Numbered from the stretch's first letter, positions 1,351-26,267 are shown. The stretch: DNA of 34,360 bases from Acidobacteriota bacterium (GCA_040005235.1 JBDTZG010000057.1:1-34360); one strand, 5' to 3'. The notes: generated by a model from the sequence alone, not told the origin. Translations and numbers: made by a program.

Positions 1351-2721
1351 TTGCGCGGAGAGCCAGGTACAGTTCGGCGGGCGTTCGAGCTTTTGCGCCA
1401 TCCGGCGACGGTAGAGAAGGAGGCCCTGCTCGCGGCCCGCTGGGCGGAGCTTCCTGACGAGATGCGCCTGCCGGGCCAGGGGCTCGGCCAGAAAGCGACC
1501 GGCTGCGGTGCCACGATCGGCATCCAGCCCCGTTGCGATTTCGCCTGCACCGGCTGCTACCTGGGCAAGGACGCCAACCACGTCCCGGCCCTGCCGACCG
1601 CGGCGATCTTGCGCCAGCTCGACGCCCTGCGCGCCCGGCTCGGTCCGAAGAGCAACATCCAGATCACCGACGGCGAGGTCACGCTCCGGCCGATGCCGGA
1701 GTTGATCGAAATCCTTCGCTACGCCCGCTCGATCGGCGGCGTGCCGATGGTGATGACCCACGGCGACAACCTGCGCCGCCAGCCGGGAATGCTCGAACGG
1801 CTGATGGTCGAAGGGGGCTTGACGGAGGTCTCGATCCACATTGACATCACCCAGCGCGGCCGGGACGGGCACCACGCGCCGACCTCTGAGCTTCAGTTGA
1901 TGGAGCTGCGCGACGAATTCGCGGAGATGATCCGCACGGCGCGGAAGGCCACTGGCCGGCCGCTGCGCGCGGCGACCACGCTCACCGTAAGCCAAGACAA
2001 CCTGCCGCAGATGGCGGACGTGGTCCGCTGGACGGTGAAGAATCGCGACGCCTTCAGCCTGATCAGCTTCCAGCCGCTCGCCATGGTCGGCCGGACGCGG
2101 AAGAAGCTGGTCGGTGTTTCGCCCGCCGAGCTGTGGGCCGAGGTGGCCAAGGCTACCGCCGATTTCGGGCTTACGCTCCGCGACGAAGATTCGGCGGAGC
2201 CGGTGCATTTCGGCCACCCCGCCTGCACCCGTTTCGTGCCGCTGCTCGCGGTCGAACGCCCGGGCGAGGCGCCGAAGCTGATCCAACTGATCCGGCCGGT
2301 GCCGGAGGACGTGGCGATCGTCGAGCGTTTCTTTTCGAGCAAGATGGGCGGTTCCGCATTCCGCGACGACACAGGGCTAGAAGCCGTCGCCCGCGCGATC
2401 GGCCTGGTCGGCAGCGCGCCCGGCTGGTTCTTGGGGCCGGTCCGCCGCTGGCTGAAAGAACGGGCGCGCGAAGAGCTGGGCACGTCGCTCCTCGGGCTCG
2501 GCCTCGACCGCCTGCGCGGCGCGGTGCGGCTCGACGGGCTCACGCTCACCAGCCATCACTTCATGGCGCCCGCTGAGCTGCAAACCGACCTCGGCAAACA
2601 GCGCCTGGCCGCCTGCGTCTTCCGGCTGCCGCATAAGGGAGACATGGTGCCGATGTGCCAGATGAACGCCGCCGGCCAGCGCGACAAGTTTTACCAGGAG
2701 ATCATCGAAGGAGGGGACTGA
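1351..2721 (+). CDS. Radical SAM enzyme, atypical
   Basis: CDFACTGC is the CxxxCxxC cluster motif, and DGEVT sits at the GGEP position. Further motifs are SFQP...GR, HPAC and a C-terminal ACVF...VPMC. The TTG start follows GGAG, 9 nt after the DUF547 stop. Confidence 0.88.
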   Translation: MRGEPGTVRRAFELLRHPATVEKEALLAARWAELPDEMRLPGQGLGQKATGCGATIGIQPRCDFACTGCYLGKDANHVPALPTAAILRQLDALRARLGPKSNIQITDGEVTLRPMPELIEILRYARSIGGVPMVMTHGDNLRRQPGMLERLMVEGGLTEVSIHIDITQRGRDGHHAPTSELQLMELRDEFAEMIRTARKATGRPLRAATTLTVSQDNLPQMADVVRWTVKNRDAFSLISFQPLAMVGRTRKKLVGVSPAELWAEVAKATADFGLTLRDEDSAEPVHFGHPACTRFVPLLAVERPGEAPKLIQLIRPVPEDVAIVERFFSSKMGGSAFRDDTGLEAVARAIGLVGSAPGWFLGPVRRWLKERAREELGTSLLGLGLDRLRGAVRLDGLTLTSHHFMAPAELQTDLGKQRLAACVFRLPHKGDMVPMCQMNAAGQRDKFYQEIIEGGD

Positions 2722-2751
2722 GCCCCCCGAAAGCGGGCCCAGTCGAATCCA

Positions 2752-3468
2752 TTAGGGAAGTTTTGACAGGAAATTCAAGTCGGCGCTCAACCGATTCGCG
2801 GGTTGCAGGCCCCTGGCTGAGTCCGCATGGCAGAAGAGGCCGAGCTGACCCAGGCCGACGGTTTGATCGCAACCGAGGCTGAATCTCCACTTCGCGGCAA
2901 CCGGTTTGCAACCGCCGTCGTCAGGGCCGGTGTTTGACCCCGACCACTCCGCTGCCGCCAGGCTCCAATCCATGACCGGGACCGGCTTCTGGGTCGTGTC
3001 CGCCGTCACCTTGGCGTGATAGCCCAGGACGACGAACGGTCCCTTGGTGCAGCAGTTGAGGGTCTCTGTGTCACAACCGACTCCGACTTCGGCAGAGTAG
3101 GCGGTGTGGATCTCCACCCAACTGCCGACCGGTAGTTGCCCGCGAGCCGGGCAACCCCCGACCGGTCCCCCAATCGACGACGCATGCTGATCCGAGCACA
3201 GTGGCTGGAGGTTCTCGATCCAGCAGTGATAGTGCTGGCTGCAGCGGTGGAGCGTCACGGGAGGTTTTCCAGCGTCTGGGATATAGGTGATCACGTCATC
3301 GGTCGGCCCCCTCTTGATGGTCGCCGGTGCGTCCTGGGTGTTCCACTTCTCCAAACGCCGCGGCGTTTGATCCTTACAACTCTCCTGGCCGAAAGCGGTG
3401 GGTGCGATCCACAGCCCGAGCCCGCAGAAGATGACGATGCAGCGACGCATTGACGACGAGATCAGCAT
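2752..3468 (-). CDS. Secreted, Cys-rich carbonic-anhydrase-like protein (divergent alpha/delta class)
   Basis: Signal peptide (AFG|Q) and GGAG RBS. The ordered motifs QTPR, QHYH..IEN, VEIH, WSGSNTGP and ARGLQP parallel the CA motifs QSP, HxH..EH, ExH, GSxTxP and RPxQP. Confidence 0.65.
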   Translation of the reverse strand: MLISSSMRRCIVIFCGLGLWIAPTAFGQESCKDQTPRRLEKWNTQDAPATIKRGPTDDVITYIPDAGKPPVTLHRCSQHYHCWIENLQPLCSDQHASSIGGPVGGCPARGQLPVGSWVEIHTAYSAEVGVGCDTETLNCCTKGPFVVLGYHAKVTADTTQKPVPVMDWSLAAAEWSGSNTGPDDGGCKPVAAKWRFSLGCDQTVGLGQLGLFCHADSARGLQPANRLSADLNFLSKLP

Positions 3469-3629
3469 GGCTCTTTCTCCTCACGAAAGCCGCTGTTCGA
3501 TAAGCGACCGACGTGCTAAGTCCAACTTCTTGATTTGATTTTGAGATCTTAGCCCATTCTCCGGGCCGCCGCCGTTGCCGGTAACAGGGTAGAGCGCTAA
3601 ACTACAGCATCCAACGAAGGGGGAGAATC

Positions 3630-5237
3630 ATGGGATTGCTGTCGAGGGCGGCTGTTTACGCGATCGTGGCCACGGTCATCTCAGGCCAAGCACTGGCTCA
3701 AACACCGGTCCGGATGAATTGGCAAACGTTCGCCCAAGATCCCGCTCGGGTCCAAAGTTTCCGCAACGCGGTCGCGGTGATGAAGTCGCGCGACACCGCC
3801 GATCCGACGAGCGCGCTCTATCGCACCAGCTGGCAGTATTGGGGAGCGATGCACGGTTATTTCGGCACGACCTCGGTCTTCGGCACGATCGAGAAAGCGA
3901 TCGCCAAATTCAAGGCCTCGGGCGGTGACCAGAGTCTCCTTCCTTACTTCGACGGCATCACCAATATGACTCCGCCGGATGCGATCGCCGCCCAAGTCTG
4001 GGGTCAGTGCCAGCACGGCACCGATTGGTTTTTCGCCTGGCACCGGCTCTACCTCTACTACTTCGAGCAGGTCTTAGAAAGCGCCGCCAACGATCCGACG
4101 CTCCGCCTGCCCTACTGGGATTACACGACCACGTCCAATCTCGCGATGCCGGAGGCCTATACCACTCCAACCTACGTCAACGCGAAAGGGGAGACCGTGC
4201 CGAATCCGCTGTATGAAGAGCGGCGCTACCCGGGTTGGAACACTCCGACGAGCAACACACTCGATCCGGCGGATACGGACATCAACGATCAGCTTGTAGA
4301 CACGACCTTTTTCGACGTCTCGGTCAAAGGCGACGGATTTCAAAACGGCATCGAGTACAACGTGCACGGCAACGTTCACTGTTCGGTGATGGATTGTCCG
4401 GTGCCTGACATGGGGGCGGTCGGGTATTCGGCGAACGATCCGATCTTCTGGTCTCATCATGCGAATATCGACCGGATGTGGGACTGCTGGACCAGCCTGG
4501 GCAACGCCAATCCGACCGATTCGAGCTACCTGGGAAAGAAGTTCTCCTACATCGACGGGACCAGCAACCTCGTGACCAACACGGTCGCCGACCTGTCCAA
4601 CGGAAACATCAAGCTCGGCTATGTCTACCAACAGGCGAGCAACTGCGCACGAAGCAAGACCGCGACCCTGGCGGCGACTCCGGCGCCACAAGCTATGAGC
4701 GAGGATGCCTTGAAGAGCGCGCGCACGACATTGGCCAAACCGGTCATTCTTGCCAAAGAGAAAAGCTTCGCCATCGACTCGGCGGTGACCAAGAAACGGC
4801 TGCCGATCACGGGCGGAGCCGCCCTCGCGGCCCCGCGGACGCTCGCGTTCCGTGAGAACACCGCGCTGCCGGTGCGGACCGACCTGGTGCTGCGCGACAT
4901 CCGATTCGAGGCCCATCCCGGCTCGCAGTTCAACGTCTTTCTCGAGCGGCGCGACGATCCCACCAAGCGCGCCCGGGTGGGGACGTTGAGCTTCTTCGAC
5001 TCGGCGGGGAGCGGCGAGGGGCACGAGAACCACGGCGGATCCGGATCCCTGGACCGCTCTTTCGACGTCACGGACGAGCTGCGCCAGATCGCCGGAACGA
5101 AAGACGAGCTCAAAGAGGTCGAAGTCGTCTTCGAAGCGGCGAACGGACGAATCGGAGGGAAGGCCAAGCCGCACTTCAGTTCGAAGTCGAAGCTCACCGT
5201 CGGCGAGATCGAATTGCGCGTGACGGCACGCCCGTAA
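3630..5237 (+). CDS. Secreted tyrosinase / polyphenol oxidase with C-terminal beta domain
   Basis: Signal peptide (ALA|Q). CuA site: AMHG, CQHGTDWFFAWHRLYL, LPYWDY. CuB site: VHGNVH, DPIFWSHHANIDRMW. The C-terminal FNVFL..VGTLSFF..FDVT resembles PPO shielding domains. Confidence 0.93.
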   Translation: MGLLSRAAVYAIVATVISGQALAQTPVRMNWQTFAQDPARVQSFRNAVAVMKSRDTADPTSALYRTSWQYWGAMHGYFGTTSVFGTIEKAIAKFKASGGDQSLLPYFDGITNMTPPDAIAAQVWGQCQHGTDWFFAWHRLYLYYFEQVLESAANDPTLRLPYWDYTTTSNLAMPEAYTTPTYVNAKGETVPNPLYEERRYPGWNTPTSNTLDPADTDINDQLVDTTFFDVSVKGDGFQNGIEYNVHGNVHCSVMDCPVPDMGAVGYSANDPIFWSHHANIDRMWDCWTSLGNANPTDSSYLGKKFSYIDGTSNLVTNTVADLSNGNIKLGYVYQQASNCARSKTATLAATPAPQAMSEDALKSARTTLAKPVILAKEKSFAIDSAVTKKRLPITGGAALAAPRTLAFRENTALPVRTDLVLRDIRFEAHPGSQFNVFLERRDDPTKRARVGTLSFFDSAGSGEGHENHGGSGSLDRSFDVTDELRQIAGTKDELKEVEVVFEAANGRIGGKAKPHFSSKSKLTVGEIELRVTARP

Positions 5238-5247
5238 CGCCAGCCCT

Positions 5248-5285
5248 CCTCCGTGCCCGGGGAAACGGTTTCCCGGGCACAGAGG
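5248..5285. terminator. Strong GC hairpin between convergent genes
   Basis: GTGCCCGGG...CCCGGGCAC stem (5253-5280), extended by CCTC/GAGG, between the tyrosinase and epimerase stops. Confidence 0.6.
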
Positions 5286-5317
5286 CTTTCCTCCACTTGC
5301 CGATGCCTGGAGCCTTG

Positions 5318-6298
5318 CTAGGCAGCCGGAGCGGAACGCAAATACGGCAAGGTCAGGCGCAGCCCATCGTCCAGCCCGCGCGGATGCCAATCCAGCTCCC
5401 GTTGCGCCCTGGCGTCCGAGAACGCCCAATGGCGGGCGAGACTTTCGAGCTGGCCGCTGGTGAACGGCGCTTTTCGGCCGCGCAGGCGAGCGAGGCCTCG
5501 CAGGACCGGCAGGGCCGCCCGGGCGACGCCCAGAGGCAGCTCGAAACGCGGCGGCGGCGCGCCGCCCTGCGCCCGGATCTTCTCGAACAGGCCGCGGAGG
5601 GTGACGGTCTCGCCCGCCAGGATGTAGCCGGCACCGACCGCTCCGCGATCCATGGCCCGCACGATCCCATCCACCAGATCGTCGATGTACACCCAACAGG
5701 TCTTCCGATCGCCGCCGACGATGGCGGGCATCCGGCCGAGCAGGATCTGGCGGAGGATCGAATTCGCCCCTTCCTTCTTGCCCGGCGGACCGTAGACCAG
5801 GCTGGGATAGACCGTGGTGACGCGCAGCCCGCGCTTGGCCCATTCCAGGATCGCCCGCTCCCCCGCCAGCTTGGTCTCGCTGTAGATCGACGGAGCGCTC
5901 CGCGGTTTCATCGTTTCGTCCGCGGCCGAGCCGTCGTCCGGGCTGCCGCCGAACGAGGCGACTGAGGAGACCGAGAGGAACCGGCCGACGCCAAGCTTCG
6001 AAGCGAGCGAGGCGACATTCTCGCTCCCCTGGACGTTCGAGCCGCGGAAGGTCTCCGCCGCGCCCTCCATCGCCACTTCGGCGGCCGCGTGGATCACCCA
6101 GTCGGCACCCGACATTCCCTCTCTCATCGTGATCCGGTCCCGGATGTCGCCAACGAACAGAGCGGCGCCCGCCGCTTCGAGCGGAGCGCGGTTGCTGGTC
6201 GGCCGCACGAGAGCGCGCACCTCGTGACCGTCCGCCACCAATCGCTGGGCGAGAACCTTGCCGATGTAGCCGGTGCCGCCGGTCAGGAAGATGCGCAT
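5318..6298 (-). CDS. NAD-dependent epimerase/dehydratase (extended SDR, dihydroflavonol reductase/HpnA-like)
   Basis: MRIFLTGGTGYIG Rossmann motif, VIHAAA, catalytic YSETK (YxxxK), and PSLVYGPP. Start placed at ATG 6298. Confidence 0.92.
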   Translation of the reverse strand: MRIFLTGGTGYIGKVLAQRLVADGHEVRALVRPTSNRAPLEAAGAALFVGDIRDRITMREGMSGADWVIHAAAEVAMEGAAETFRGSNVQGSENVASLASKLGVGRFLSVSSVASFGGSPDDGSAADETMKPRSAPSIYSETKLAGERAILEWAKRGLRVTTVYPSLVYGPPGKKEGANSILRQILLGRMPAIVGGDRKTCWVYIDDLVDGIVRAMDRGAVGAGYILAGETVTLRGLFEKIRAQGGAPPPRFELPLGVARAALPVLRGLARLRGRKAPFTSGQLESLARHWAFSDARAQRELDWHPRGLDDGLRLTLPYLRSAPAA

Positions 6299-6315
6299 GA
6301 GTTGGGTCCGCTCAT

Positions 6316-6354
6316 ACAAAAAGCCCCGCACCAGGGAGGGATCCGATGCGGGGG
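6316..6354 (-). terminator. Rho-independent terminator
   Basis: The minus strand reads CCCCGCATCGG-atccctcc-CTGGTGCGGGG-CTTTTTGT, an 11-bp stem including G-U pairs followed by a U tract. Confidence 0.75.
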
Positions 6355-6470
6355 GAGGAGAGGGAGCTGATGATGTTGCTCGCGGTGCCGACAACCACGT
6401 GAGTCGCACCGCGGGGGGCGAGCCCAACTCCCGACCTGCCCGCCCTTGCTGATTGAAACAAGGGAAAGGT
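6316..6470 (-). ncRNA. Candidate structured small RNA or leader ending in an intrinsic terminator
   Basis: Three consecutive hairpins (6443-6464, 6381-6413, 6324-6354). A CU-rich linker precedes the last one, which is followed by CTTTTTGT on the minus strand. No family recognised. Confidence 0.45.
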
Positions 6471-6508
6471 GATCGAGATTCCTGACCATGGCAAACTGTG
6501 CATCGAAT

Positions 6509-7189
6509 TCACAATTTCCACAGCCCCATCGCCTTGTCGGCGTAGGCGTCATCCTCGACCGACCGCCGCTCGCTCAAGAGCCGGAGGGGTTCCCCAAGCG
6601 AAAACGGCGGAAGCGCGAGATGGATCGGCCGCCAGGCGCCGAGCGGGATGTCCGGATTCTCGCTCCGCTCCGAGAAGGTGGTCGCGAGCAGGTGGCGGGT
6701 GCCGCTCGCCCGGAGGTTTTTAAGGGCGGCGAGGATCTGCGCATTCGGCAGGTGGACCCAGCAGTCGCGACAAAACGCCAGATCTGCCCGCGGCGGAACC
6801 TCGGTCGCGATCTCCAACGGGAAGAAATGCCGATGCGGCCCGCCGTACTTTTTGCGGTTGTCCTCGATCAGCTCGACCACGACGTCGACCCCGGTGTAGT
6901 CGATCTCGCCAAGGTCGAGCGTCCGAAACCAGTTGAAATCGCCGCAGCCGACGTCGAGCACCGAGCGGACGCCCAGCTCCTCGAACAATTCCGGAATCTG
7001 CTGCCGCAGCGCCGCCGTGCTCCCCAACGTCGACCCCGGCCCGGAGCGCGATTCCGGATCCTCCCAAAGATTGAGCAGATAGGCGCGGGTAAACGCGCTC
7101 TTGACCTGCTCGCCCTCGCTGGCATTCCGATCCGGAGCTTCGCGGAAGCGGCGGAGGAGGTGCTCGGCGGCTTGGCGGAGGCTAGGCAT
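6509..7189 (-). CDS. Class I SAM-dependent methyltransferase
   Basis: VLDVGCGDFNW (motif I), YTGVDVV, DLAFCRD..VHL and N-terminal ESRSGPGS. The start overlaps the upstream micro-ORF stop (TAATG). Confidence 0.88.
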   Translation of the reverse strand: MPSLRQAAEHLLRRFREAPDRNASEGEQVKSAFTRAYLLNLWEDPESRSGPGSTLGSTAALRQQIPELFEELGVRSVLDVGCGDFNWFRTLDLGEIDYTGVDVVVELIEDNRKKYGGPHRHFFPLEIATEVPPRADLAFCRDCWVHLPNAQILAALKNLRASGTRHLLATTFSERSENPDIPLGAWRPIHLALPPFSLGEPLRLLSERRSVEDDAYADKAMGLWKL

Positions 7190-7365
7190 TAATCGTCTGA
7201 CCAGCTTTTGTCCTTCGAAAGGACCATCGCTTGAACGGCCACCCAGAACGGATCGAGCTCGCTACCTTCTCTTTCTACGACCCGGTTGATGGCGGCGATG
7301 AGGAGCTCACGCTCCTTCGCAGCTGTTGCCGGCCTTTTCCTCCTGGGGATTCGCCCAGCGGTCAT
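7189..7365 (-). CDS. 58-aa micro-protein, copy 1 (absent from the ORF track)
   Basis: Hand translation: MTAGRIPRRKRPATAAKERELLIAAINRVVEREGSELDPFWVAVQAMVLSKDKSWSDD*. It overlaps the HEPN stop (ATGA) and the methyltransferase start (TAATG). A paralog lies at 10268-10426. Confidence 0.75.
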   Translation of the reverse strand: MTAGRIPRRKRPATAAKERELLIAAINRVVEREGSELDPFWVAVQAMVLSKDKSWSDD

Positions 7366-7694
7366 GACAGTCCTTCCAACCGGGTACGAAGCTGGGGAAG
7401 GTCGAATCGGAGGATCTGCCAGATGAGCTCAAGATCCAACCCGAAATAGTCGTGAACGATCCGATTACGCAGCCCGGCCATCTGGTGCCAAGGTAAATCA
7501 GGAGTCCGCGCGATGAAATCCTCTGGCAGTCGTCGAGCTGCCTCCCCGACGATTTCCAGGTTCCGCACCACGGCGTCGATGGTCTTCGGATCCGCCAGAA
7601 ACTGCCCCTTTTCCATGCCATCGGTGTACTGCTCGATCTTCCGGATGGCTGCGAGCATGTCCTCGACCAAGAGGTCGGCATCGCGCCTAGGCAT
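7362..7694 (-). CDS. hepT: HEPN (DUF86) ribonuclease toxin
   Basis: DAVVRNLEIVGEAA and GLRNRIVHDY (Rx4H plus conserved Y); 110 aa; overlaps the MNT gene. Confidence 0.92.
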   Translation of the reverse strand: MPRRDADLLVEDMLAAIRKIEQYTDGMEKGQFLADPKTIDAVVRNLEIVGEAARRLPEDFIARTPDLPWHQMAGLRNRIVHDYFGLDLELIWQILRFDLPQLRTRLEGLS

Positions 7695-7977
7695 CGACCA
7701 ACTCGGGTTCGATGCGCTCCCACATCTCTTCCTTGATGGCGCGCCGGGAGACCAGGTCTACCCGGCGTCCCAGCGCTCTTTCAAGTTCGTCTCCCAGCTC
7801 GACGAACCGCAGGCCGATCGAAGGATCGACCTCCACCAGGATGTCTATATCGCTGTCTTCCCGGGCATCACCACGAGCCCAGGAACCGAACAGGGCCATG
7901 CGCTGGATTGGATACCGAAGTCGGAGCTCCGCATGTTGGTCGCGCAATGCCATGACGATGTCTGCCGTGGTTGCCAT
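7687..7977 (-). CDS. mntA: Minimal nucleotidyltransferase (MNT) antitoxin
   Basis: LFGSWARGDAREDSDIDILV (GS..DxD) and GRRVDLV. ATG 7977 follows the RBS GGAGGAGG. Confidence 0.92.
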   Translation of the reverse strand: MATTADIVMALRDQHAELRLRYPIQRMALFGSWARGDAREDSDIDILVEVDPSIGLRFVELGDELERALGRRVDLVSRRAIKEEMWERIEPELVDA

Positions 7978-7981
7978 GGTT

Positions 7982-8046
7982 GCCTCCTCCCGGTTCCGTT
8001 TCATGGTAGCACCGTGAAGTGCGGCTGATGCTTGACCGCGCACCTT
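7982..8046 (-). promoter_or_regulatory. Promoter/RBS leader of mntA-hepT, duplicated at 8710-8774
   Basis: Contains the extended -10-like TGCTACCAT and the RBS GGAGGAGG. By hand alignment it is 56/65 nt identical, ungapped, to 8710-8774. Confidence 0.55.
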
Positions 8047-8075
8047 GGGGAGATAGGAGCCTCCAGCCTTCGCCC

Positions 8076-8534
8076 TTACGCTCCCTGCGCCCCACTGAGG
8101 CTCCCGTAGTACTCCGCCATGCCGGCGAGCGTGATCAACGCTTCGCCACGCTCTTCAGGAAGTAGACCTGCTCGGGCGTCGAGCCACGGGCGCTCGCCGT
8201 GGATCAAGTCGCTCAGCCACTGGGAGGTCTTATCGCCGTAGAAATTCAAGACCGCATCGATCGTCTCTCGTTCCGCACTCTTCAGCTTGTTCGGATCTCC
8301 CTTGGGCCAAGTGGCGACCTTGAACTGACCACGATGCTCCGCATAGAGCGTGGGCACCACCGGGCCATTGGCCCAGGCCTCGATGCGAGCTTGGAACAGC
8401 GGACGTTCGTCCCACACCAGCGACCAGGCTTGCGAGTAATAGACGAGCTTCTGCAGTTTCATCGCGGTCATCGAGCCGCGCTGCTGCAGGATGTAAGCGG
8501 CGACATCGTTGGCGCTGGTCACGGAATTCTCCAT
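8076..8534 (-). CDS. Panacea-domain (DUF4065 / GepA / SocA-like) antitoxin
   Basis: ANDVAAYIL, MKLQKLVYYSQAW, IEAWANGPVVPTLY, LSDLIH.E.PW. The start is ATG 8534 or 8543. Confidence 0.9.
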   Translation of the reverse strand: MENSVTSANDVAAYILQQRGSMTAMKLQKLVYYSQAWSLVWDERPLFQARIEAWANGPVVPTLYAEHRGQFKVATWPKGDPNKLKSAERETIDAVLNFYGDKTSQWLSDLIHGERPWLDARAGLLPEERGEALITLAGMAEYYGSLSGAQGA

Positions 8535-8597
8535 GCCTTCCATCCGGCGAATTCGCAGAATAGGTCTGCGTTGTACGCTACTGTACAACCGAGGTCC

Positions 8598-8774
8598 TCA
8601 GCCGTCGAACCCGCTATCGTCACCTTCGAAGCTGTCGCTTAGAGGGCCACCCAGAACTGCACGAGATCGTTCTGCTTCATTTGCCAGAACCCTAGGCATC
8701 GACCAGCCCGCCTCCTCCCGGTTCCATTCCATCGGAGCTCCGTGAGGTGCGGCTGATTCTTGACCATGCACCTT
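8598..8774 (-). pseudogene. Collapsed remnant of a leader-mntA-hepT-micro-gene operon
   Basis: On the minus strand, in order: the leader copy with RBS, the MNT-stop/HEPN-start junction (TGGTCGATGCCTAGG), then the micro-gene 3' end FWVAL with a CAA>TAA nonsense change and a 1-nt deletion. Confidence 0.75.
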
Positions 8775-9072
8775 TTGCGCCTTCGTTCTCGCGTTGTCAG
8801 GTAGGGAGGCACATCTAAGGAGCCAATTTGGCCTGAATATACTCCAGCTCGTAATTTCAGATCGCTGTCGGCCGGTAGCACGCTTCGATCGCCGGTGGCC
8901 CACTGAGAGACGTTCGCCACGGAGTCCTTGGGTAGAGTCTGGAGGTCTTTAGCCGCCCTCCCACCCGAAGAGATAGTTTGTTCTGTATAAGCGGAGAGAA
9001 AGCGTACCGCGAATGACGACGGCTTAGCCGATTATCGTCAGACGAGGCGTCAGGGGGCCAATGGAGGTTTCA

Positions 9073-9660
9073 ATGAGAAGTCGTAGCCATCTTCTAGCGC
9101 TGCTTTTGGTGCTCGGCTGCGGTCGTGAGCGCTTTGAACTTGGCAAAGACTCGCAAGGCCGTACAGTTCGCCTCGACCGCCAGACTGGAAAGGTAGAGCT
9201 AGTAGACTCACTAATCGCTTCGTCCGGCAGCCCGTCACCGTCTCCGTCGGCTGGCTCGCCGCCCAATCCAAAGCCCGCGCCCGATCACTCGGAGGCCGCC
9301 GCCGAGAAAATCATTCTGGTCGAGATTCTCGACAAGCGCTTCACCAAGGCCGGCTACGAGGACTTTGTGGCCTTCGACTTTCGCTACACCGCGTCTGGGC
9401 TCGACCGACCAACCCGTGCCGTGAAAGGCAAAATGCTCTTTCAGGATTTATTTGGTGAAACACATCTCACGCTAGGTTGGACCATTGACAAACCGCTCGC
9501 TCCAAACGAAACGGCTGACGAGCTCGGCAGCGGTCTTGATTACAATCAGTTCATGGACGATCACAAGTGGGCTCGATTCACCGAAAAGGGCGACATGAAG
9601 GCGGTGTTCCGGGTTCAAAGCATCATCTACGCGGACGGAACCCGCGTAGACTTCGAATAA
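9073..9660 (+). CDS. Hypothetical lipoprotein
   Basis: ATG follows GGAGG. MRSRSHLLALLLVLG|C is a lipobox, followed by a Ser/Pro linker and a beta-rich C-terminal domain (FQDLFGE, DYNQFMDDH, IIYADG). Visibly lower GC than the backbone. Confidence 0.8.
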   Translation: MRSRSHLLALLLVLGCGRERFELGKDSQGRTVRLDRQTGKVELVDSLIASSGSPSPSPSAGSPPNPKPAPDHSEAAAEKIILVEILDKRFTKAGYEDFVAFDFRYTASGLDRPTRAVKGKMLFQDLFGETHLTLGWTIDKPLAPNETADELGSGLDYNQFMDDHKWARFTEKGDMKAVFRVQSIIYADGTRVDFE

Positions 9661-9666
9661 AAGGAA

Positions 9667-10185
9667 GTGAGCCCAATGTCGCAGCCACCATCAATTTCAT
9701 GTCGCATCTGTGACCAAGGTCAGCTCTTTCATTCGAAGGTGCATCGCCTCAGTGGCCCTGCTGTGACTATCGGCTATATTCTCCTCGTACCATCGCTTCT
9801 CGGAATTCTGTTGAGCCTGTTCTTTCTGATGGCCAGCTGGGTGGGAGCCGCCTCCACCGCCACCGAGCTTTCCGCAGTTACAAGAGAGGCGATCAGGACG
9901 GCGGATGTTCCGCTCGATCTTCGGCAAAAGCTCGAACAGGGCCATCTCGTCACTGAGTCCGAAATGGCGAACCTAACCTTTGTTCAGCGCTCAGCGATCG
10001 AATCCGCGAATAGCCAGCTCGCCGCTTCGGTCGCCGGGAGCGGTTGCGCCGCTGCATGTGGGACGGGTCTTGCCGGTATCGGCGCCGTATTTTCGTTCGT
10101 TGGCGGCCTTGTCGGGTGGCTTCTCGTCATGAAGAAACGCGTCTTGAAATGCAACCTTTGTGGTGCCGCCGTTGCTGTCAGTTAG
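9667..10185 (+). CDS. Membrane protein with split CxxC...CxxC zinc ribbon
   Basis: N-terminal CRIC and C-terminal CNLC flank two hydrophobic segments. The start (GTG 9667 or ATG 9676) follows AAGGAAG. Confidence 0.75.
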   Translation: MSPMSQPPSISCRICDQGQLFHSKVHRLSGPAVTIGYILLVPSLLGILLSLFFLMASWVGAASTATELSAVTREAIRTADVPLDLRQKLEQGHLVTESEMANLTFVQRSAIESANSQLAASVAGSGCAAACGTGLAGIGAVFSFVGGLVGWLLVMKKRVLKCNLCGAAVAVS

Positions 10186-10190
10186 GCATC

Positions 10191-10239
10191 GCGCGGGCCT
10201 CCGGCTCGCCAGTGGGGGCGAGACGCCCGCGCACCCAGG
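10191..10239. repeat. REP-like palindrome / bidirectional terminator
   Basis: GCGCGGGC..CTCGCC..GGCGAG..GCCCGCGC nested stem between convergent genes. The arm GGCGAGACGCCCGCGCACCC resembles REP-type elements. Single occurrence in the window. Confidence 0.45.
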
Positions 10240-10267
10240 GAACATCGCCCCCTATGAGTCGACGGAC

Positions 10268-10426
10268 TCAGCCGTCTGACCAGCCATTGTCACCCTTGAA
10301 GGCTGTCGCTTGGAGCGCCACCCAGAACGAATCGAGCTGGCTGCCTTCCCTCTCCACAACCCGATTGATCGCGGCGACGATTCGCTCCCGCTCCGCATCC
10401 GACCGCGTTCTCTCAGGCCTCTTCAT
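10268..10426 (-). CDS. 52-aa micro-protein, copy 2
   Basis: MKRPERTRSDAERERIVAAINRVVEREGSQLDSFWVALQATAFKGDNGWSDG*. The ATG lies 1 nt after the acnA stop. It has 27/41 identical residues to copy 1 over the shared region. Confidence 0.75.
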   Translation of the reverse strand: MKRPERTRSDAERERIVAAINRVVEREGSQLDSFWVALQATAFKGDNGWSDG

Positions 10427-10427
10427 C

Positions 10428-13178
<2,751 letters not shown>

Positions 13179-13456
13179 GAGAGGTGCTCTCCTCGGATCT
13201 GGCTCACAATCTCGGCGACCGCGAAGAACGCAAGATTTTCGGCGCGGCGCAAGGGGGGCGGTCGACCGGCCCCTGCGCTCCGGCCGAGATCGCAAGCGAA
13301 CGATACCAGTTCAGACCGGACCTGTTGCAAGCCGCAAGCGCGAGAGCTATCGTCGCACCAGCACTTACACTCCAATTCTCGGCGTTTTCCGGCAACCCGT
13401 GAGCCTTCGGCTCGCGATGCGTCCTCGCTAGATCAAGGACCAGGAGGTTGATCGTC

Positions 13457-19782: not shown

Positions 19783-20003
19783 TTGAATCTCCTTTGGTAA
19801 TGAAAAGGTGACCTTCACTCCCAACGGTGCGCGCCGCGCGCGGGGTGTGACAAGCGTCTCTCCACCACTGGCCGAGCATCCGACGGAACCGGTCTCGCAG
19901 CTCTTTGTTCGCAGCCACAACCAACGGCTCCTTCCGAGATGTCGGACGGTGACCGGCCTCCACCAGTGAGCTCACGGCCAAAGAGACCTATAGAATGGGG
20001 GGC

Positions 20004-20336
20004 GTGGGACCGACTGACAAGCCATTGGTCTGGCTTCATGGCGAGCTGAAGACTCCTCCCGTGGCGTTCGGTTCCCGGTTGGAAGCAGGCTTTCTCCTGC
20101 GCAAACTGCAACAGGGGGACCGGCTGTCCTTGCCGCACTCGCGCCCAATGCCCGCGATTGGGCCAAGGTGCCATGAGCTACGTATCGACGAGGAAGATGC
20201 GACGTGGCGGGTCATCTATCGGATCGACCCGGATGCGATCGTGATCGTCGAGGTCTTGAAGAAGAAAACTCAGGCCACTCCCAAAGCGACGATTGAAGTT
20301 TGCCGGCGGCGTCTCAGCTCGTATGATCGAGCATAG
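20004..20336 (+). CDS. RelE/HigB-superfamily toxin (Gp49/DUF891-like)
   Basis: AGFLLRKLQQG..LSLPHSRPM..IG..CHELRI..WRVIYR..KKKTQATP. The start is GTG 20004 or ATG 19995. Confidence 0.88.
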   Translation: MGPTDKPLVWLHGELKTPPVAFGSRLEAGFLLRKLQQGDRLSLPHSRPMPAIGPRCHELRIDEEDATWRVIYRIDPDAIVIVEVLKKKTQATPKATIEVCRRRLSSYDRA

Positions 20337-20347
20337 GAGGCCCTAAG

Positions 20348-20680
20348 ATGGACCCGAACAAAAAAGCGCGCCTCGAAGCCCAGGGCTGGAAATTTGGCTC
20401 CGCCGAGGAGTTCCTTGGCATGACACCGGAGGAGTCTGCCTATGTGGAACTTCGCCTCAAGTTGAGCGAAGCCGTGCGCCAAGTCCGCGCGACGCGCCAC
20501 GTAACCCAACTCCAACTGGCACGACGGCTTCAATCCAGCCAAGATCGCGTGGCGAAGGCAGAATCCGCCGAAGAGCCTGTGTCGCTGGACCTCCTCATCC
20601 GCTCCCTCCTCGCCATGGGCATCACGAATCGAGATTTAGCCCGAGTGATCGCGGGGGGAGAGCTCGCCGCAGGCGCCTAG
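20348..20680 (+). CDS. Xre-family HTH antitoxin (HigA-like)
   Basis: RBS GGAGG; GWKFGSAEEFLG..EE, then HTH TQLQLARRLQSSQDRVAKAE; directly downstream of the toxin. Confidence 0.88.
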   Translation: MDPNKKARLEAQGWKFGSAEEFLGMTPEESAYVELRLKLSEAVRQVRATRHVTQLQLARRLQSSQDRVAKAESAEEPVSLDLLIRSLLAMGITNRDLARVIAGGELAAGA

Positions 20681-20725: not shown

Positions 20726-23700
20726 TCAACCAATCTCGGCCGCCGGCTCTCCCGATCCCCTCCCGAACAACCGCCCCACCCGCCGCCCCGCCCGCTGGAA
20801 CAGCTTCGCCTCGACCAGGTCGTCGAACAGGCTGTAGGCGACCGGGGTGCCGATCAGGGTGAGCAGCAGGGCGAGCGTCTGCCCGCCCATGATCACCGAG
20901 CCGATCGCCCGGTTGGTGCCCGCTCCCGTGCCGCTCGATGCGACGAGCGGCACCATGCCGGCGACGAAGGCGAGGGTGGTCATCAGGATCGGCCGCAGCC
21001 GGTCGCGGTTTGCCTCGCGGATCGCCTCGGCGCGGGGGAGCCCATGGGCGCGCAGCTGGATCGTGTGGTCGATCTGGAGGATCGAGTTCTTCTTGACGAT
21101 GCCGAACAGCACGAGGATTCCGAGCGCCGAGAAGATGTTGAGCGATTGGCCTAAGAAAATGAGCGAGAACAGGGCGAACGGCACGGTGAGCGGCAGGGCC
21201 AGCAGGATCGTCACCGGGTGCAGCCAGCTCTCGAACTGCGCGGCGAGGATCATGTACATGAAGACGATCGAGAGCAGGAAGGCGAGCGCGAAGTTCTTCG
21301 CCGCGCGGCCCTGTTCGCGCGAACGGCCGGTGAAGCCATACGAGTACGAAGCCGGCATGTCGAGCTTCTTCGCCGCGGCGGTCAGGCCGTCGATCACGGT
21401 CTGCGACGACGAGCCCGGGAGGGTGCCGGCGTAGATCAACACCTGGCGGCGGCGGGCGATCCGGTTGATCAACGACGGGCCGGTGCCGGGCGAGAGCGTC
21501 ACCACGTCGCCGAGCGGCACGGTGCCGATCTTGCTCGACGGAATCTCGGCGAGCGCAATGCCCGCCGCGTCCTTCCGGGCGCTCGCTTCGGCCCGGACGT
21601 GGACCTCGTACTGCTCCCCCGCTTCGGTGTAGCTGGTGACCTCCTGGCCTCCGACCAGAACGTTCATCGTCGAAGCGACGTCGTCCACCCGCACACCCAA
21701 ATCCGACGCCTTCGCCCGGTCGATCCGCGCGCCCAGCTCCGGCTTGCCGACGATCAGGTTCGAGTCCGCGTCCACCACGCCTGGCATCTTCTTGAGCTCG
21801 GCCAGCAGCTTCTGCGAGTAGCCGGAGAGCTTTTCAAGATCCGGGCCGCCGATCCAGAACTGGATTTCGGCGTTGTTGCCTCCTCCGAACGCCGAGATCG
21901 TCTCGACCGTCGTGCGCAGGCCGAGGCGCTTGTAGTTGGGGAGCACCTGCTCGCGCACCCTGGACATGACCGCGAATTGATCGGCTTTTCGCTGGTCCAC
22001 CGGCTTCAGGCGGACGTAGACCTGGCCGAGGTTCTTGGTCACCTGCGGGTCGTCGCCGATCGTCACCACGGTCGCCGCGACCTCGGGGAACTTGCGGACC
22101 TGGGCGGCGATCGACTCGACGATCGTCTTCGTGGTGGCCAAGCTCGAACCTTCGGGCGCGCGGACGTTCACCCCGAACTGCGATTCGTCGTCGCGGGGAA
22201 GGAAGTTCTTGTCCACCCGCTGGAATAGCGGAATGGTCGAAACGAACACCGCGAGCATCACCAGCACGACCACCCAGCGATGGGCGAGCGAATGGTCGAG
22301 CAACCACAGATACGCCTTCTCAATCCGCGCGTAGAAACCGCGCTCGCGGGTGCTCCCCTTCGCCTTTTCGCCGTTCGCCTTCTTCTCGTTGGCGCTGATC
22401 CAGCGCGAGCAGAGCATCGGCGTCAAGGTGAACGAGACGAGCAGCGACACCGCGATCGCGCAGGCCATGGTGATGCCGAACGAGTACATGAACCGGCCGA
22501 CGATGCCGCCCATGAACGCCACGGGCAGGAACACCGCGATCAGCGACAACGTGGTGGCGAGAACGGCGAGAGTGATTTCGCCGGTCCCCTTGGCCGCCGC
22601 CTCGCGCGGGCTCATCCCCTTTTCTTCGATGAAGCGGAAGACGTTTTCGAGCACGACCACCGCGTCGTCGATCACGATGCCCACGACCAGCGCGAGGGCG
22701 AGGAGCGTGATGACGTTCAGAGTGAAGCCGAACCAGGCCATCGCGGCGAAAGCGGCGACGAGAGAGGTGGGGATCGCGACCGCCGAGATCAACGTCAGGC
22801 GGAAGCGGCGGAGGAACAAAAGGACGATCAGCGCCGCGAACAGCGAGCCGAGCACCAAGTGCTCTTGCACCGCATCGACCGCCGCGGTGATGTAGTCCGA
22901 CTGGTCGCGCACGATGTCCATCTTCCAGCCGGCCGGGAGCTGCGAGCGGAGCTGCGCGAGACGGTCCTTCACCCCGGCGATCACCTCGACCGTGTTCAAA
23001 CCCGACTGCTTGCGGATCTGGAGCACGACCGCCGGTTTGCCGTCGACGCTCGCGAGCGTTTCCGGCTCGGCGGTCGAGTCTTCCACCCGGGCGACGTCGC
23101 TCACCTTGACCGGATAGCCCGCGCGGTTTGCGATCGGAATGTCGCCGAACGCCGCGGGCGAGGCGACGCGGCCGTAGGTGCGCAGCGTGAGATCGCGCAG
23201 CCCCTGCTCCACCTGGCCGCCGGGGATCTGCACGTTCTGGCCCTGAAGGCCGCGGACCACGTCGGCGACGGTCAGGTTCAAGGCGGCGAGCTTGCCCGGG
23301 TCGGCGACCACGTTCACCTGGCGCGGCCGGCCGCCGAGGATTCGGACCTGGCCGACGCCGGAGATCGATTCGAGCTGGCGTTTGAGCGTCTTGTCGGAGA
23401 ACTCGGTCAGCTCGCGGATCGGCACCGGACCGGCCAGAGCGATCGACAGGACCGGCGCCGCGTCCGGATCGATCTTCTGGATGATCGGCGGGTCGGCGCT
23501 CTGCGGCAGCTCGCCGAGCACGGTGTTCACCCGGTCGCGCACCTCTTGGGCGGCCACGTCGCCGTCCTTTTCGAGCACGAACGAGACGATCACCTGCGAG
23601 GTGCCTTCCGACGAGATCGAGATCAGCTGATCGATGCCGCTGATCGTGTTGACCGCCTCTTCGAGCTTGTCGGTGATCTCGGTCTCGATGTCCTCGGGAC

Positions 23701-23866
23701 CGGCGCCCACCAGGCGGGTGGTGATCGTCACGGTCGGAAAATCGACCTTCGGGAAACGGTCGACGCCGAGCTTGCCGTAGGCGAACAGGCCGACTACCAC
23801 CAGCGACAGGATCAGGACCGACGCGAAGACCGGCCGGCGGATGCACAGCTCGGCCAGGCGATTCAT
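20726..23866 (-). CDS. RND efflux permease (AcrB/MdtBC-like)
   Basis: 1046 aa; IRRPVFA, GIVIDDAVVVLEN, GIVKKNSIL, RLRPILMTT. Confidence 0.97.
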   Translation of the reverse strand: MNRLAELCIRRPVFASVLILSLVVVGLFAYGKLGVDRFPKVDFPTVTITTRLVGAGPEDIETEITDKLEEAVNTISGIDQLISISSEGTSQVIVSFVLEKDGDVAAQEVRDRVNTVLGELPQSADPPIIQKIDPDAAPVLSIALAGPVPIRELTEFSDKTLKRQLESISGVGQVRILGGRPRQVNVVADPGKLAALNLTVADVVRGLQGQNVQIPGGQVEQGLRDLTLRTYGRVASPAAFGDIPIANRAGYPVKVSDVARVEDSTAEPETLASVDGKPAVVLQIRKQSGLNTVEVIAGVKDRLAQLRSQLPAGWKMDIVRDQSDYITAAVDAVQEHLVLGSLFAALIVLLFLRRFRLTLISAVAIPTSLVAAFAAMAWFGFTLNVITLLALALVVGIVIDDAVVVLENVFRFIEEKGMSPREAAAKGTGEITLAVLATTLSLIAVFLPVAFMGGIVGRFMYSFGITMACAIAVSLLVSFTLTPMLCSRWISANEKKANGEKAKGSTRERGFYARIEKAYLWLLDHSLAHRWVVVLVMLAVFVSTIPLFQRVDKNFLPRDDESQFGVNVRAPEGSSLATTKTIVESIAAQVRKFPEVAATVVTIGDDPQVTKNLGQVYVRLKPVDQRKADQFAVMSRVREQVLPNYKRLGLRTTVETISAFGGGNNAEIQFWIGGPDLEKLSGYSQKLLAELKKMPGVVDADSNLIVGKPELGARIDRAKASDLGVRVDDVASTMNVLVGGQEVTSYTEAGEQYEVHVRAEASARKDAAGIALAEIPSSKIGTVPLGDVVTLSPGTGPSLINRIARRRQVLIYAGTLPGSSSQTVIDGLTAAAKKLDMPASYSYGFTGRSREQGRAAKNFALAFLLSIVFMYMILAAQFESWLHPVTILLALPLTVPFALFSLIFLGQSLNIFSALGILVLFGIVKKNSILQIDHTIQLRAHGLPRAEAIREANRDRLRPILMTTLAFVAGMVPLVASSGTGAGTNRAIGSVIMGGQTLALLLTLIGTPVAYSLFDDLVEAKLFQRAGRRVGRLFGRGSGEPAAEIG

Positions 23867-24879
23867 CGCGCGCCTCCCGGTGTGCTTCCAGATCCCAGAT
23901 CGAGCTTCACGCGGGCGAACAGACCGGGCTTCAACCGTCCGTCACGGTTGGGAAATTCGGTTTCGACCGCGACCGTGCGGGTGGCGGCTTCGACCACGCC
24001 GCCGATCACCTTCACCCGGCCGCGGAACGTCTCGCCCGGATAGGGATCGACACTCGCCGCGACCTCCTGGCCGAGCCGGACGCTCGAAAGGTAGCGCTCC
24101 GGCAGGCGGAAGCGGAGCTTGAGCGGCGAGGTCTGGACGATCACGAAAGCGACCGTCGCTTCGCCCATCCGCTCGCCCACGTCGGTCCGCTTTTCGGCCA
24201 CCACGCCGTCGATCGGCGAGCGGAGGACGGCGTCCTCCATCCGTTGCCGCGCGAGGTCGCGGGTTGCTTTCGCCGCGAGCACGGCGGCGTCGGCTCCTGA
24301 GGCGGTCGATTCGGAACGGTCGAACGCGGCCTGGGCGACGCTCCCTTTGGCGAGCAGGTCGCGCTTTCTTTCGAGGTCCCGCTTGGCGTCGCCCGCCGCC
24401 GCATTGGCCCGCGCCACCTCGGCGGTCGAGCGCTCGACCTCTAGCGACAGGTATTGGGTTTCGAGCGTCAGCAAGGGCTGGCCCTTCCGGACCCGCGCGC
24501 CTTCATCGACGTACATCTTGCCCACCCGGCCGGGCATGCGGACTGCCAGCTCCGACTGGACGGGCGAGACCAGCTCACCGGTCGCCTCGACGCTCGTCGC
24601 GCCGATCGCCGGATCGGAGGCCGTCGTGGAGGCTGCCGACGCGGTGCTTCCGGTCGCACCCGAGGCCGCGGCATCTGCGCCATCCGCGGCCGGCACGTCG
24701 GAGCCAGGAGCGATGCCGGCGATCTTTTCGACGTCCGCCGGAAGCGCCGGAGCGGGAGCAGAAGCGGTATCGGAGGCATTGGCTTCGGGTTTCGCCGCCG
24801 GCTTGGGCTTTCCGCCGCAGGCGAAGGCGGGAAGAAGGAGGACGGAGAGAGAAAGGATCGAGATCGGCAGGCGCTTCAT
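23863..24879 (-). CDS. RND periplasmic adaptor (membrane fusion lipoprotein)
   Basis: Lipobox AFA|C; G.V....V.EG..V.KGQPL, LRSPIDGVV, RLKPGLF; ATGA overlaps with both neighbours. Confidence 0.95.
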   Translation of the reverse strand: MKRLPISILSLSVLLLPAFACGGKPKPAAKPEANASDTASAPAPALPADVEKIAGIAPGSDVPAADGADAAASGATGSTASAASTTASDPAIGATSVEATGELVSPVQSELAVRMPGRVGKMYVDEGARVRKGQPLLTLETQYLSLEVERSTAEVARANAAAGDAKRDLERKRDLLAKGSVAQAAFDRSESTASGADAAVLAAKATRDLARQRMEDAVLRSPIDGVVAEKRTDVGERMGEATVAFVIVQTSPLKLRFRLPERYLSSVRLGQEVAASVDPYPGETFRGRVKVIGGVVEAATRTVAVETEFPNRDGRLKPGLFARVKLDLGSGSTPGGAR

Positions 24880-26267
24880 CGGACGTCCTCCATCGAAAGA
24901 TTCTTGGCCAGCAGGCCGGCCGCGGCCCAGACCTGCAACTCCGCGAGATCGCGGTCCAGCTCGCCCGTGGCGACTGCGCGTCGCGCCTCGGCGAGCGACG
25001 TTTCCGCCACCCGGGCGTCCAGCGCGGTCAGCTCTTGGGCGCGGTACAGCTCATCGGCCTGTTGGTATTCCGCCTCGGCGGCGGTCTTTTGTTCCTGGGC
25101 GAGCGCAAGCTCGGAATCCGCGGCGGCCAGATCGGCGATCGCCCGCCGGACCTCTTCGCGCACCGTGCGGCGCGCGGCTTCGAGATCCAGCTCGGCCTGA
25201 TGCAGGCGCTCGGTGGCCACGGCCACTCTCGCCTTCACTTCGCCCCCTTGGTAGACCGGCACGGTAAGCCGCAAGGCGAAAAACCCATACTGATCGAGCG
25301 GAAACGACGAACGCTGCTTCAACCAGGCGCCGTCGGCGGTCAGAACCGGCAACAGCGCGCCCTTCTGCTTGCGGATTTCCAGCCGTGCGAGCTCGACCGC
25401 CGTGGCGGCCCGCGCCACCTCCGGGCGCGAGGCCTCGACCTGCGCGAGCAGCTCCGCCTCGGTCGGCCGCTTCGGCAGGATGCGGCCCGGCTCGGTCGGC
25501 ACGAGCGGCACGTCGAGCGCCAGGTCTTCGCGCAGCCGGCTCTCGGCGAGCGCCCGCGTCTGGCGCGCCTGGGCGAGCTGGCGCTCGGCGCCTTTGATGT
25601 CGGTCTCGGCGCGCAAGAGGTCGACGCGCGTGGTCTCGCCCGCGTCGAAAAAAGTCTGGGCCTGTTCGCGCCGGGCGGAAGCGAGCCCGACACTCTGGTT
25701 TTCGACCGCGATCAGCTGATCGGCCCGCACGACGGCCAGGTAGTCGGCGGCGACGGCCAGCAACAGCCGGTCGCGCACCGACTCGGCGTTTGCATGGGCG
25801 GTGTCGATCCCCAGGCGCGCCTGTTCGAGCGCCCGGCGCTCGCGATTGCCGGCATAGATCGGCTGCGACAGGGTGAGGCGATAGCTCCAGTCGCGGCCGG
25901 GTAGGACGACCCGCTTGTCGGAGCCGGAGCCGAAGCTCGCCTCTTCGCTGTTGATTACGTAATTACCCTGCACGCCGACCTTCGGCAGCACGCTCGCGAG
26001 CAGCGCGCGCACCTGGCCTTTGACGGCGGTGGCTTCGATCTCGGCCGAGCCGAGGGAAGGGTTCGCCGCGAGCGCCTGGGAGAGCGCCTCTTGAAGCGTG
26101 ATCGGGCGCGGCGCGGCGGCGTCCAGCGCAGAAGCCGGAGAGATCGCCGGGGGCGCGGCCACGGGATCGTCCGCCGCGAGCGCGGGGCCACACAAGGCGA
26201 TCCCCAGCGCTAGGGCTAGCCCCAAGGCCCGGCGCGGGGCGAGTTTGAACAGAGCTCGACGGATCAT
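24876..26267 (-). CDS. TolC-family outer membrane efflux protein
   Basis: Signal peptide; ITLQEALSQALAANP, LSQPIYAG, LTVPVYQGG; two-repeat OEP pattern. Confidence 0.93.
   Translation of the reverse strand: MIRRALFKLAPRRALGLALALGIALCGPALAADDPVAAPPAISPASALDAAAPRPITLQEALSQALAANPSLGSAEIEATAVKGQVRALLASVLPKVGVQGNYVINSEEASFGSGSDKRVVLPGRDWSYRLTLSQPIYAGNRERRALEQARLGIDTAHANAESVRDRLLLAVAADYLAVVRADQLIAVENQSVGLASARREQAQTFFDAGETTRVDLLRAETDIKGAERQLAQARQTRALAESRLREDLALDVPLVPTEPGRILPKRPTEAELLAQVEASRPEVARAATAVELARLEIRKQKGALLPVLTADGAWLKQRSSFPLDQYGFFALRLTVPVYQGGEVKARVAVATERLHQAELDLEAARRTVREEVRRAIADLAAADSELALAQEQKTAAEAEYQQADELYRAQELTALDARVAETSLAEARRAVATGELDRDLAELQVWAAAGLLAKNLSMEDVR

Follow-up and report, generated by a model that had tools for sequence, protein, structure and literature searches.

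Probable orphan mini-antitoxins of MazE6-type ancestry encoded by a repeated micro-gene downstream of acnA in an Acidobacteriota genome

In a stretch of 34,360 nucleotides (nt) from an Acidobacteriota bacterium (GCA_040005235.1 JBDTZG010000057.1:1-34360), called the window below, three copies of one very small gene, named here the micro-gene, are located between acnA and a methyltransferase gene, each of them on the minus strand; all positions refer to this whole stretch. Copies A and C are intact and copy B is decayed. Sequence comparison shows homology of the micro-protein with the toxin-binding C-terminal half of a ribbon-helix-helix (RHH) antitoxin of the MazE6 type, a widespread protein of approximately 78 amino acids (aa). 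The micro-gene represents a known antitoxin family in truncated form, and the locus is of a known kind rather than a new cassette system, although an earlier, sequence-only reading had put it forward as a candidate for an undescribed one. The intact copies are probably orphan mini-antitoxins, located in a spot where toxin–antitoxin (TA) modules are acquired and eroded.

The micro-gene copies

The three copies are arranged as follows:

7189-7365, minus strand: micro-gene copy A, 58 aa; last gene of a unit of MNT, HEPN and micro-gene (unit A), overlapping both neighbours
8598-8669, minus strand: micro-gene copy B, decayed; only the last approximately 20-24 codons left
10268-10426, minus strand: micro-gene copy C, 52 aa; solitary, behind acnA

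The sequence-only reading had placed these copies, and their common orientation, correctly, and it had recognized the decay of the middle one, which is interrupted by an in-frame TAA at 8639-8641. The start ATG of copy A overlaps the HEPN stop by 4 nt (ATGA), and its stop TAA overlaps the ATG of the methyltransferase gene (TAATG). The ATG of copy C lies 1 nt past the acnA TGA; the open reading frame (ORF) can be read from 10474, but the extra stretch falls inside acnA. In both intact copies the ATG is preceded by a purine-rich stretch and the gene is tightly coupled to the one upstream. Downstream, copy A is followed by the methyltransferase gene, copy B by a Panacea gene, and copy C by intergenic DNA and then convergent genes.

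The proteins of copies A and C are identical at 30 of 50 residues (60%; BLASTP, E 4e-20) and their DNA at 76-77% across 122-124 nt (E 6e-23). Copy B is 84% identical to copy C across 62 nt (E 1e-14) and 80% identical to copy A across 35 nt. The likeness is far above chance, and an extension of three codons beyond the terminal Trp of the MazE family is common to all three. Copies that are 76-86% alike are unlike the product of an assembly collapse or of a strain chimera.

Homology of the micro-proteins to MazE6-type antitoxins

The micro-proteins have no match in Pfam, NCBIfam, PADLOC or PHROGs. A motif scan of one genome per species, covering 185,579 species, led to a single locus (L001) in a Holophagales metagenome-assembled genome. 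Here, an antitoxin ORF of 85 aa (77 aa counted from a conserved Met) is directly followed by a PemK/MazF toxin gene (Pfam 4.1e-24). Residues 51-84 of this antitoxin match the micro-proteins over 34 aa in tblastn, with 68% identity to copy C (E 1.9e-10) and 62% to copy A (E 9.9e-11); of the core residues, 24 of 36 in copy C and 21 of 36 in copy A are identical to it. The N-terminal half of the L001 antitoxin gives weak RHH matches, all under the Pfam cut-offs. Relatives of the whole antitoxin, 112 of the 114 candidates at E <= 1e-3, are mostly 77-80 aa long, and some of them are named CopG/RHH or MazE6 by their sources.

Two alignments were made, one of 18 full-length relatives with five micro-proteins and one of 58 full-length relatives with six. 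In both, the micro-proteins span only the C-terminal half of the antitoxin family (approximately 38 residues), which aligns with the toxin-binding tail of MazE6-type antitoxins, and they retain the S-x-L-D, the Q and the terminal W of the family. No residue of theirs is aligned to family columns 1-34. The RHH domain is replaced by a short basic stretch; the micro-proteins gave no RHH match in Pfam or NCBIfam, and tblastn with the L001 antitoxin revealed no N-terminal remnant above noise in the window.

The family profile matches the MazE6 structure in the PDB (7wj0, E 3.4e-10) via its N-terminal half, the DNA-binding domain, and the L001 toxin matches MazF6 (5hk0, E 2e-27). According to the part of the published analysis available to us, MazF6 binding was mapped by a scan of MazE6 residues 31-82, with 23 residues counted as contributors and positions 31-45 as strong ones, and residues 45-66 were deduced to become helical upon binding (PMC8593223). 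In our reading, copy C (52 aa) would be in register with about residues 31-82 of MazE6.

Binding of copy C to a MazF dimer is supported by structure prediction. Modelled together with two copies of the L001 MazF, copy C obtained a score of 0.85, whereas the best of three controls obtained 0.00; 116 of 157 solved complexes and 2 of 215 mismatched pairs attain the mark by which such scores are read. Contact agreement between runs was at least 80%, with a predicted local distance difference test score (pLDDT) of the partner of at least 72. The modelled interface comprises residues 16-31, 34-44 and 48-50 of copy C, which is the conserved core. Because MazE–MazF complexes have already been solved (e.g., 4me7), this score shows likeness rather than binding.

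Age of the copies and selection

The comparison of copies A and C yields a synonymous divergence (dS) of 0.75 with a ratio of nonsynonymous to synonymous divergence (dN/dS) of 0.27 over 40 codons, and a dS of 0.98 with a dN/dS of 0.15 over 31 codons, part of which divergence may predate the truncation. Copies A and C are under purifying selection and are kept as proteins. Between the window and L001, the dS of the backbone genes (acnA, Panacea, epimerase) is 0.46-0.68, so the divergence of the copies goes back at least as far as the separation of the two genomes. Compared with the tail of the L001 antitoxin, the copies differ at a proportion of 0.68-0.73 of synonymous sites, which is close to saturation, and copy C is equally near to that tail (24/36) and to copy A (25/38); by these comparisons, simple orthology to the L001 tail fits neither A nor C.

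Perfectly matching stretches between copies reach 12-13 nt at most. RecA-type recombination requires longer identical runs. Since the copies are old and have no common run longer than 13 nt, they make poor recombination substrates, which argues against ongoing recombination or homogenization through them. The exchange of cargo by recombination through the micro-gene, as claimed in the sequence-only reading, does not agree with these values.

Size of the micro-protein family

Among 5.8 billion proteins, other homologues form four clusters of 53-59 aa, coming from other samples. They are 70-78% identical and share the truncated architecture and the C-terminal extension, and their starts align; across six micro-sequences the start position is kept within five codons. 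A profile built from the six sequences gave four matches at E <= 0.001 among 1.84 billion representatives, namely P0004 (a known cluster), one fragment of 37 aa, and two long repetitive proteins of 634 and 565 aa, the last two being taken as compositional matches and not as homologues. The full-length antitoxins were not reached by this profile, and the link to them came from the genome scan. Copy C was missing from the proteins returned for the copy A query, despite long exact words in common. It seems that copy C was not called as a gene in the protein collection, and the family may be under-counted.

Gene content of the interval

The remaining features of the islet and its two flanks are these:

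6509-7189, minus strand: class I S-adenosylmethionine-dependent methyltransferase (Pfam Methyltransf_23/25/12, ~1e-6); conserved right flank
7362-7694, minus strand: HEPN/HepT-type RNase toxin, 110 aa (Pfam HepT-like 3.8e-31)
7687-7977, minus strand: nucleotidyltransferase antitoxin of MNT/MntA type; 96 aa if started at the ATG at 7977, with the ORF open to 8043
8076-8588, minus strand: Panacea (SocA-like) antitoxin-domain protein (Pfam SocA_Panacea 6.9e-18; phrog_1281 3.6e-34)
8691-8705, minus strand: remnant of the MNT-stop/HEPN-start junction of unit B, an exact 15-mer in common with 7686-7700
8710-8774, minus strand: remnant of the MNT 5' leader with ribosome-binding site, the start of decayed unit B
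8872-8949, minus strand: remnant of a MazF/PemK toxin gene, equivalent to L001 MazF residues 63-88 and carrying a 2-nt indel
9061-9660, plus strand: lipoprotein-like ORF, 199 aa, function unassigned
9667-10185, plus strand: Zn-ribbon-like membrane protein, 172 aa, function unassigned; convergent with copy C
10428-13295, minus strand: acnA, aconitate hydratase (Pfam Aconitase 4.1e-170, Aconitase_C 5.4e-41), with a likely start ATG at 13178; conserved left flank

The contents of the two blocks between the copies are as the sequence-only reading had described them, with the lipoprotein-like and Zn-ribbon ORFs on the plus strand and Panacea, MNT and HEPN on the minus strand. The MazF remnant, the MNT leader and junction remnants by copy B, and the homology to antitoxins were absent from it. 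The MNT and HEPN genes overlap at 7687-7694. The MNT gene matches Pfam NTP_transf_2 (3.8e-14), PADLOC PDC-S09 (1.4e-24) and NCBIfam MntA_antitoxin (5e-14), the last with 52.1 bits, and the HEPN gene matches NCBIfam HepT_toxin (1.5e-14) with 54 bits, both NCBIfam scores lying under the 60-bit equivalog cut-offs.

Directly upstream of copy B lie the MNT leader, 86% identical to 7982-8046 over 65 nt (E 5e-18), and the junction remnant. From these matches, unit B is a collapsed MNT-HEPN-micro unit, a paralogue of intact unit A at 7189-8046, equivalent to unit A less 7701-7981 and 7262-7685. The copies had been regarded as punctuation between cassettes; copy B is instead the tail of a three-gene unit that is repeated as a whole. 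The MazF remnant is 90% identical to L001 6979-7037 over 59 nt (8877-8935, blastn) and 62% identical to the L001 MazF across 26 aa (tblastn, E 4e-5), the local alignment spanning 8949-8872. The G+C content of the island is 0.53-0.63, compared with 0.64-0.72 in the flanks.

Comparison with the related locus

L001 is syntenic with the window on both flanks, at 82-87% nt identity, or about 85% overall. The acnA gene is 87% identical to L001 3224-5976 and the methyltransferase gene 84% identical to L001 7132-7437. The order at L001 is acnA, Panacea (5976-6482), MazE, MazF, methyltransferase (with an internal deletion of 325 nt) and epimerase, whereas in the window acnA is followed by copy C, two convergent genes, the MazF remnant, unit B, Panacea, unit A and the methyltransferase. 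The Panacea proteins of the two loci are 86% identical over 162 aa, and at neither of them was a recognizable toxin partner found. The interval from acnA to the methyltransferase measures 1.16 kb in L001, where it holds Panacea, MazE and MazF, and 3.24 kb in the window. A segment of 1.85 kb that is present only in the window is bordered exactly by the acnA stop and the conserved Panacea leader, spanning from the first base of copy C to approximately 17 nt past the stop of copy B. Between the Panacea stop and the methyltransferase start, MazE-MazF in L001 stands against MNT-HEPN-micro A in the window.

The hotspot proposed in the sequence-only reading therefore survives in one respect, since the interval is filled with TA genes and differs between the two genomes, and largely fails in the other, the accordion-like recombination. 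In L001, the sole relative found, neither an empty site with one copy nor variable cargo between copies was seen, and full-length MazE with intact MazF, without a micro-gene beside acnA, does not support the proposed ancestral order of acnA, micro-gene and methyltransferase. Two stepwise histories were considered, tandem duplication of a Panacea-antitoxin-toxin unit and Campbell-type insertion into the micro-gene, and neither could be fitted from only two genomes.

The L001 methyltransferase gene (7132-7437 and 7433-8654; compared with window 6560-6884) is short by approximately 325 nt, which is not a multiple of three, and is probably a pseudogene. An inverted repeat, TTGTAC-AGTAGC-GTACAA (8571-8588, minus strand), lies between the copy B stop and the Panacea coding region; L001 retains only its right half, directly past the acnA stop. 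The repeat could be an operator, or else the scar of a junction.

Proposed origin and role of the micro-gene

The product of the micro-gene is proposed to be the toxin-binding domain of a MazE6-type (RHH) type II antitoxin, standing alone; the retained segment would be the one that wraps the MazF toxin in full-length relatives. The interval would be a small chromosomal spot in which TA modules have been acquired, duplicated and eroded. The MazF remnant, the deletions of unit B, the differing content of L001 and the low G+C argue for such erosion. The destroyed MazF, collapsed unit B, intact unit A, orphan Panacea and solitary copy C would all be contents of this spot, into which a lower-G+C pair of genes of unassigned function appears to have been inserted. 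The three copies would then mark repeated antitoxin-bearing units and not recombination sites. The intact micro-proteins would be made via translational coupling to acnA or HEPN and could neutralize a MazF6-type toxin encoded elsewhere or on incoming mobile DNA (anti-addiction), presumably being unable to repress a promoter.

Several observations weigh against this proposal. By tblastn, the 34-kb window holds only the 78-nt MazF remnant and no intact MazF, and the target toxin is thus hypothetical; the toxin in the predicted complex is that of L001 and not of the window, and the alignments given to the prediction were self-made. The micro-proteins differ from the full-length family precisely in the stretch matching positions 31-45 of MazE6. 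The micro-gene stands twice behind HEPN, which a pure MazE origin does not account for. The dN/dS values come from just 31-40 codons, and the family is tiny, with four other clusters, which is also compatible with short-lived debris. Relative to Panacea, the MazF remnant of the window is upstream and the MazF of L001 downstream, so that no simple one-step history fits, and with one comparison genome among 185,579 species the direction and the order of events are not fixable.

Alternative explanations

The micro-ORFs could also be non-functional antitoxin debris, left after the loss of the toxins and DNA-binding halves and open by chance or recency. Copy B has clearly decayed into a pseudogene, the cis-encoded toxin has been destroyed, the family has very few members, and gene callers may skip copy C, which is missing from the returned proteins; in the available parts of published surveys, many orphan antitoxins are found to be what is left of degraded systems (PMC7354431, PMC13617665). 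Chance survival agrees poorly with a dN/dS of 0.15-0.27 at synonymous divergence near saturation, or with the ATG behind a purine-rich stretch and the tight coupling seen in copies A and C. Moreover, the truncated architecture, the start and the C-terminal extension recur in the four other clusters at 70-78% identity, and the conserved core coincides with the predicted MazF interface. We consider debris an unlikely explanation.

A bolder form of the mini-antitoxin proposal, which we regard as rather improbable, is that the mini-MazE has been domesticated as a stand-alone toxin-neutralizing peptide. Travelling at the end of a HepT/MntA cassette, or carried by a housekeeping operon such as acnA, it would give immunity to MazF6-type toxins from plasmids, phages or neighbouring modules. 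If this is true, then unit A would be a hybrid three-gene unit, a type VII module carrying a type II anti-toxin device.

It might also be assumed that the micro-protein was recruited as a third component of the HepT/MntA module, e.g., as a regulator or a second HepT inhibitor. The order MNT-HEPN-micro occurs twice, intact in unit A and decayed in unit B, and in unit A the micro-gene start overlaps the HEPN stop by 4 nt. Copy C, however, stands behind acnA without MNT or HEPN, both the homology and the predicted interface (MazF being the sole partner modelled) point to MazF and not HEPN, and HEPN/MNT is described, in the part of the source available, as a two-gene module neutralized by adenylylation (PMC7641770). 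Such a role is very unlikely.

An accordion-like cassette array in which the micro-gene serves as the handle for recombination, with cargo blocks gained and lost between copies and the ancestral order acnA, micro-gene, methyltransferase, is very unlikely: three copies in the same orientation do bound the blocks, the window-only 1.85 kb does run from the first base of copy C to approximately 17 nt past the copy B stop, and the interval does differ between the window and L001, but the copies are only 76-84% identical with runs of at most 13 nt and an A–C dS of 0.75-0.98, L001 has neither a micro-gene at the acnA junction nor a one-copy empty site, no recombinase domain was found in the window ORFs, MNT and HEPN remnants accompany copy B so that the whole three-gene unit is repeated, and the micro-gene is homologous to an antitoxin.

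Relation to known systems

The likeness to MazE6-type antitoxins is confined to the C-terminal tail, and the micro-proteins, being without the RHH half, would not bind an operator in the manner of the family. The micro-gene also differs from a MazE6-type MazEF operon in that no copy is directly followed by a toxin gene, and in its stop, which stands three codons past the terminal Trp and abolishes the usual overlap of antitoxin stop and toxin start.

For orphan antitoxins, three readings are given in the part of a review available to us, as remnants, as regulators and as anti-addiction factors (PMC7354431). The micro-gene resembles them as a chromosomal antitoxin homologue without a toxin in cis, located beside degraded TA genes; the orphan antitoxins described there are whole, whereas the micro-gene is a conserved half-protein in several copies. 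In Photorhabdus, as far as the available portion of the study reports, TA modules cluster in small chromosomal spots with repeated acquisition at single sites and frequent pseudogenization of toxins (Belot et al. 2026, PMC13617665). The islet is similar to these spots in having several TA modules in a short interval, content that varies between relatives and a pseudogenized toxin. It differs in that transposase and integrase are missing from the ORFs of the 34-kb window, and the comparison here covers two genomes.

Unit A is similar to HepT/MntA type VII systems in its overlapping MNT and HEPN genes matching family models (Pfam). It differs in the third overlapping gene, of probable MazE origin, which is added behind HEPN in two units, and in the NCBIfam scores of 54 and 52.1 bits noted above. 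In a narrow, title-level text search of the literature, neither a conserved stand-alone toxin-binding half of MazE nor a unit of MNT, HEPN and a MazE fragment was found.

Other features of the window

The absence of an integrase or transposase, noted in the sequence-only reading, is borne out by a Pfam scan, in which no such domain was found in 12 ORFs or in the window's 78 ORFs of at least 110 aa. Scans of 6400-10700 gave no excess of sigma-70 promoters (1, compared with a shuffle mean of 0.8) or of terminators (5, compared with 3.6). The spacer separating copy C from the Zn-ribbon gene is rich in hairpins but folds no better than shuffles (z -1.7, equalled by 14 of 200 shuffles), and no terminator is claimed there. 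Repeats D4, D9 and D18 near 10180-10245, resembling the HEPN start or MNT leader at 72-87% over 15-25 nt of G+C-rich DNA, were taken as chance.

Neither of the two convergent ORFs has a match in Pfam, NCBIfam, PADLOC or PHROGs. For the lipoprotein-like ORF, all Atlas feature leads are below 0.9, and the structure lead is a 'putative lipoprotein' cluster (TM 0.54). The nearest Atlas cluster of the Zn-ribbon-like protein is a 'hypothetical protein' cluster of 128 members, mostly from Acidobacteriota (score 0.96), which may be its own cluster; the G+C content of its gene is 0.53-0.60. The Panacea match to phrog_1281 (3.6e-34) is a match to a phage family.

A second variable spot lies at 2717-5336, where 2.6 kb of the window is replaced by approximately 157 nt in L001. 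This segment encodes a protein with a tyrosinase domain (3630-5237, Pfam 3.4e-33) and contains, at 2752-3468, an unassigned ORF. A likely TA pair is located at 19995-20680 on the plus strand, composed of a Gp49/HigB-like (ParE/RelE-fold) ORF (Pfam Gp49 9.6e-12) and, behind it, an HTH_3-type ORF (2.5e-4, slightly short of the Pfam cut-off). An ordinary resistance-nodulation-division efflux operon occupies 20726-26267 on the minus strand, with an AcrB-type pump, an HlyD-type adaptor and an outer-membrane factor.

Significance

The interest of the locus is modest and lies in a micro-gene that is apparently kept by selection and recurs behind HEPN. It also warns against taking repeated small ORFs in such spots for new systems, since they can be fragments of antitoxins. 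According to the accessible part of the review literature, anti-addiction by orphan antitoxins is still undemonstrated (PMC7354431). If the mini-antitoxins are active, then they would represent a natural antitoxin pared down to its toxin-binding segment and selected without a toxin or an operator-binding domain, and they would be direct material for the anti-addiction idea. Otherwise, the locus would be an ordinary but clear case of TA turnover in an under-sampled phylum.

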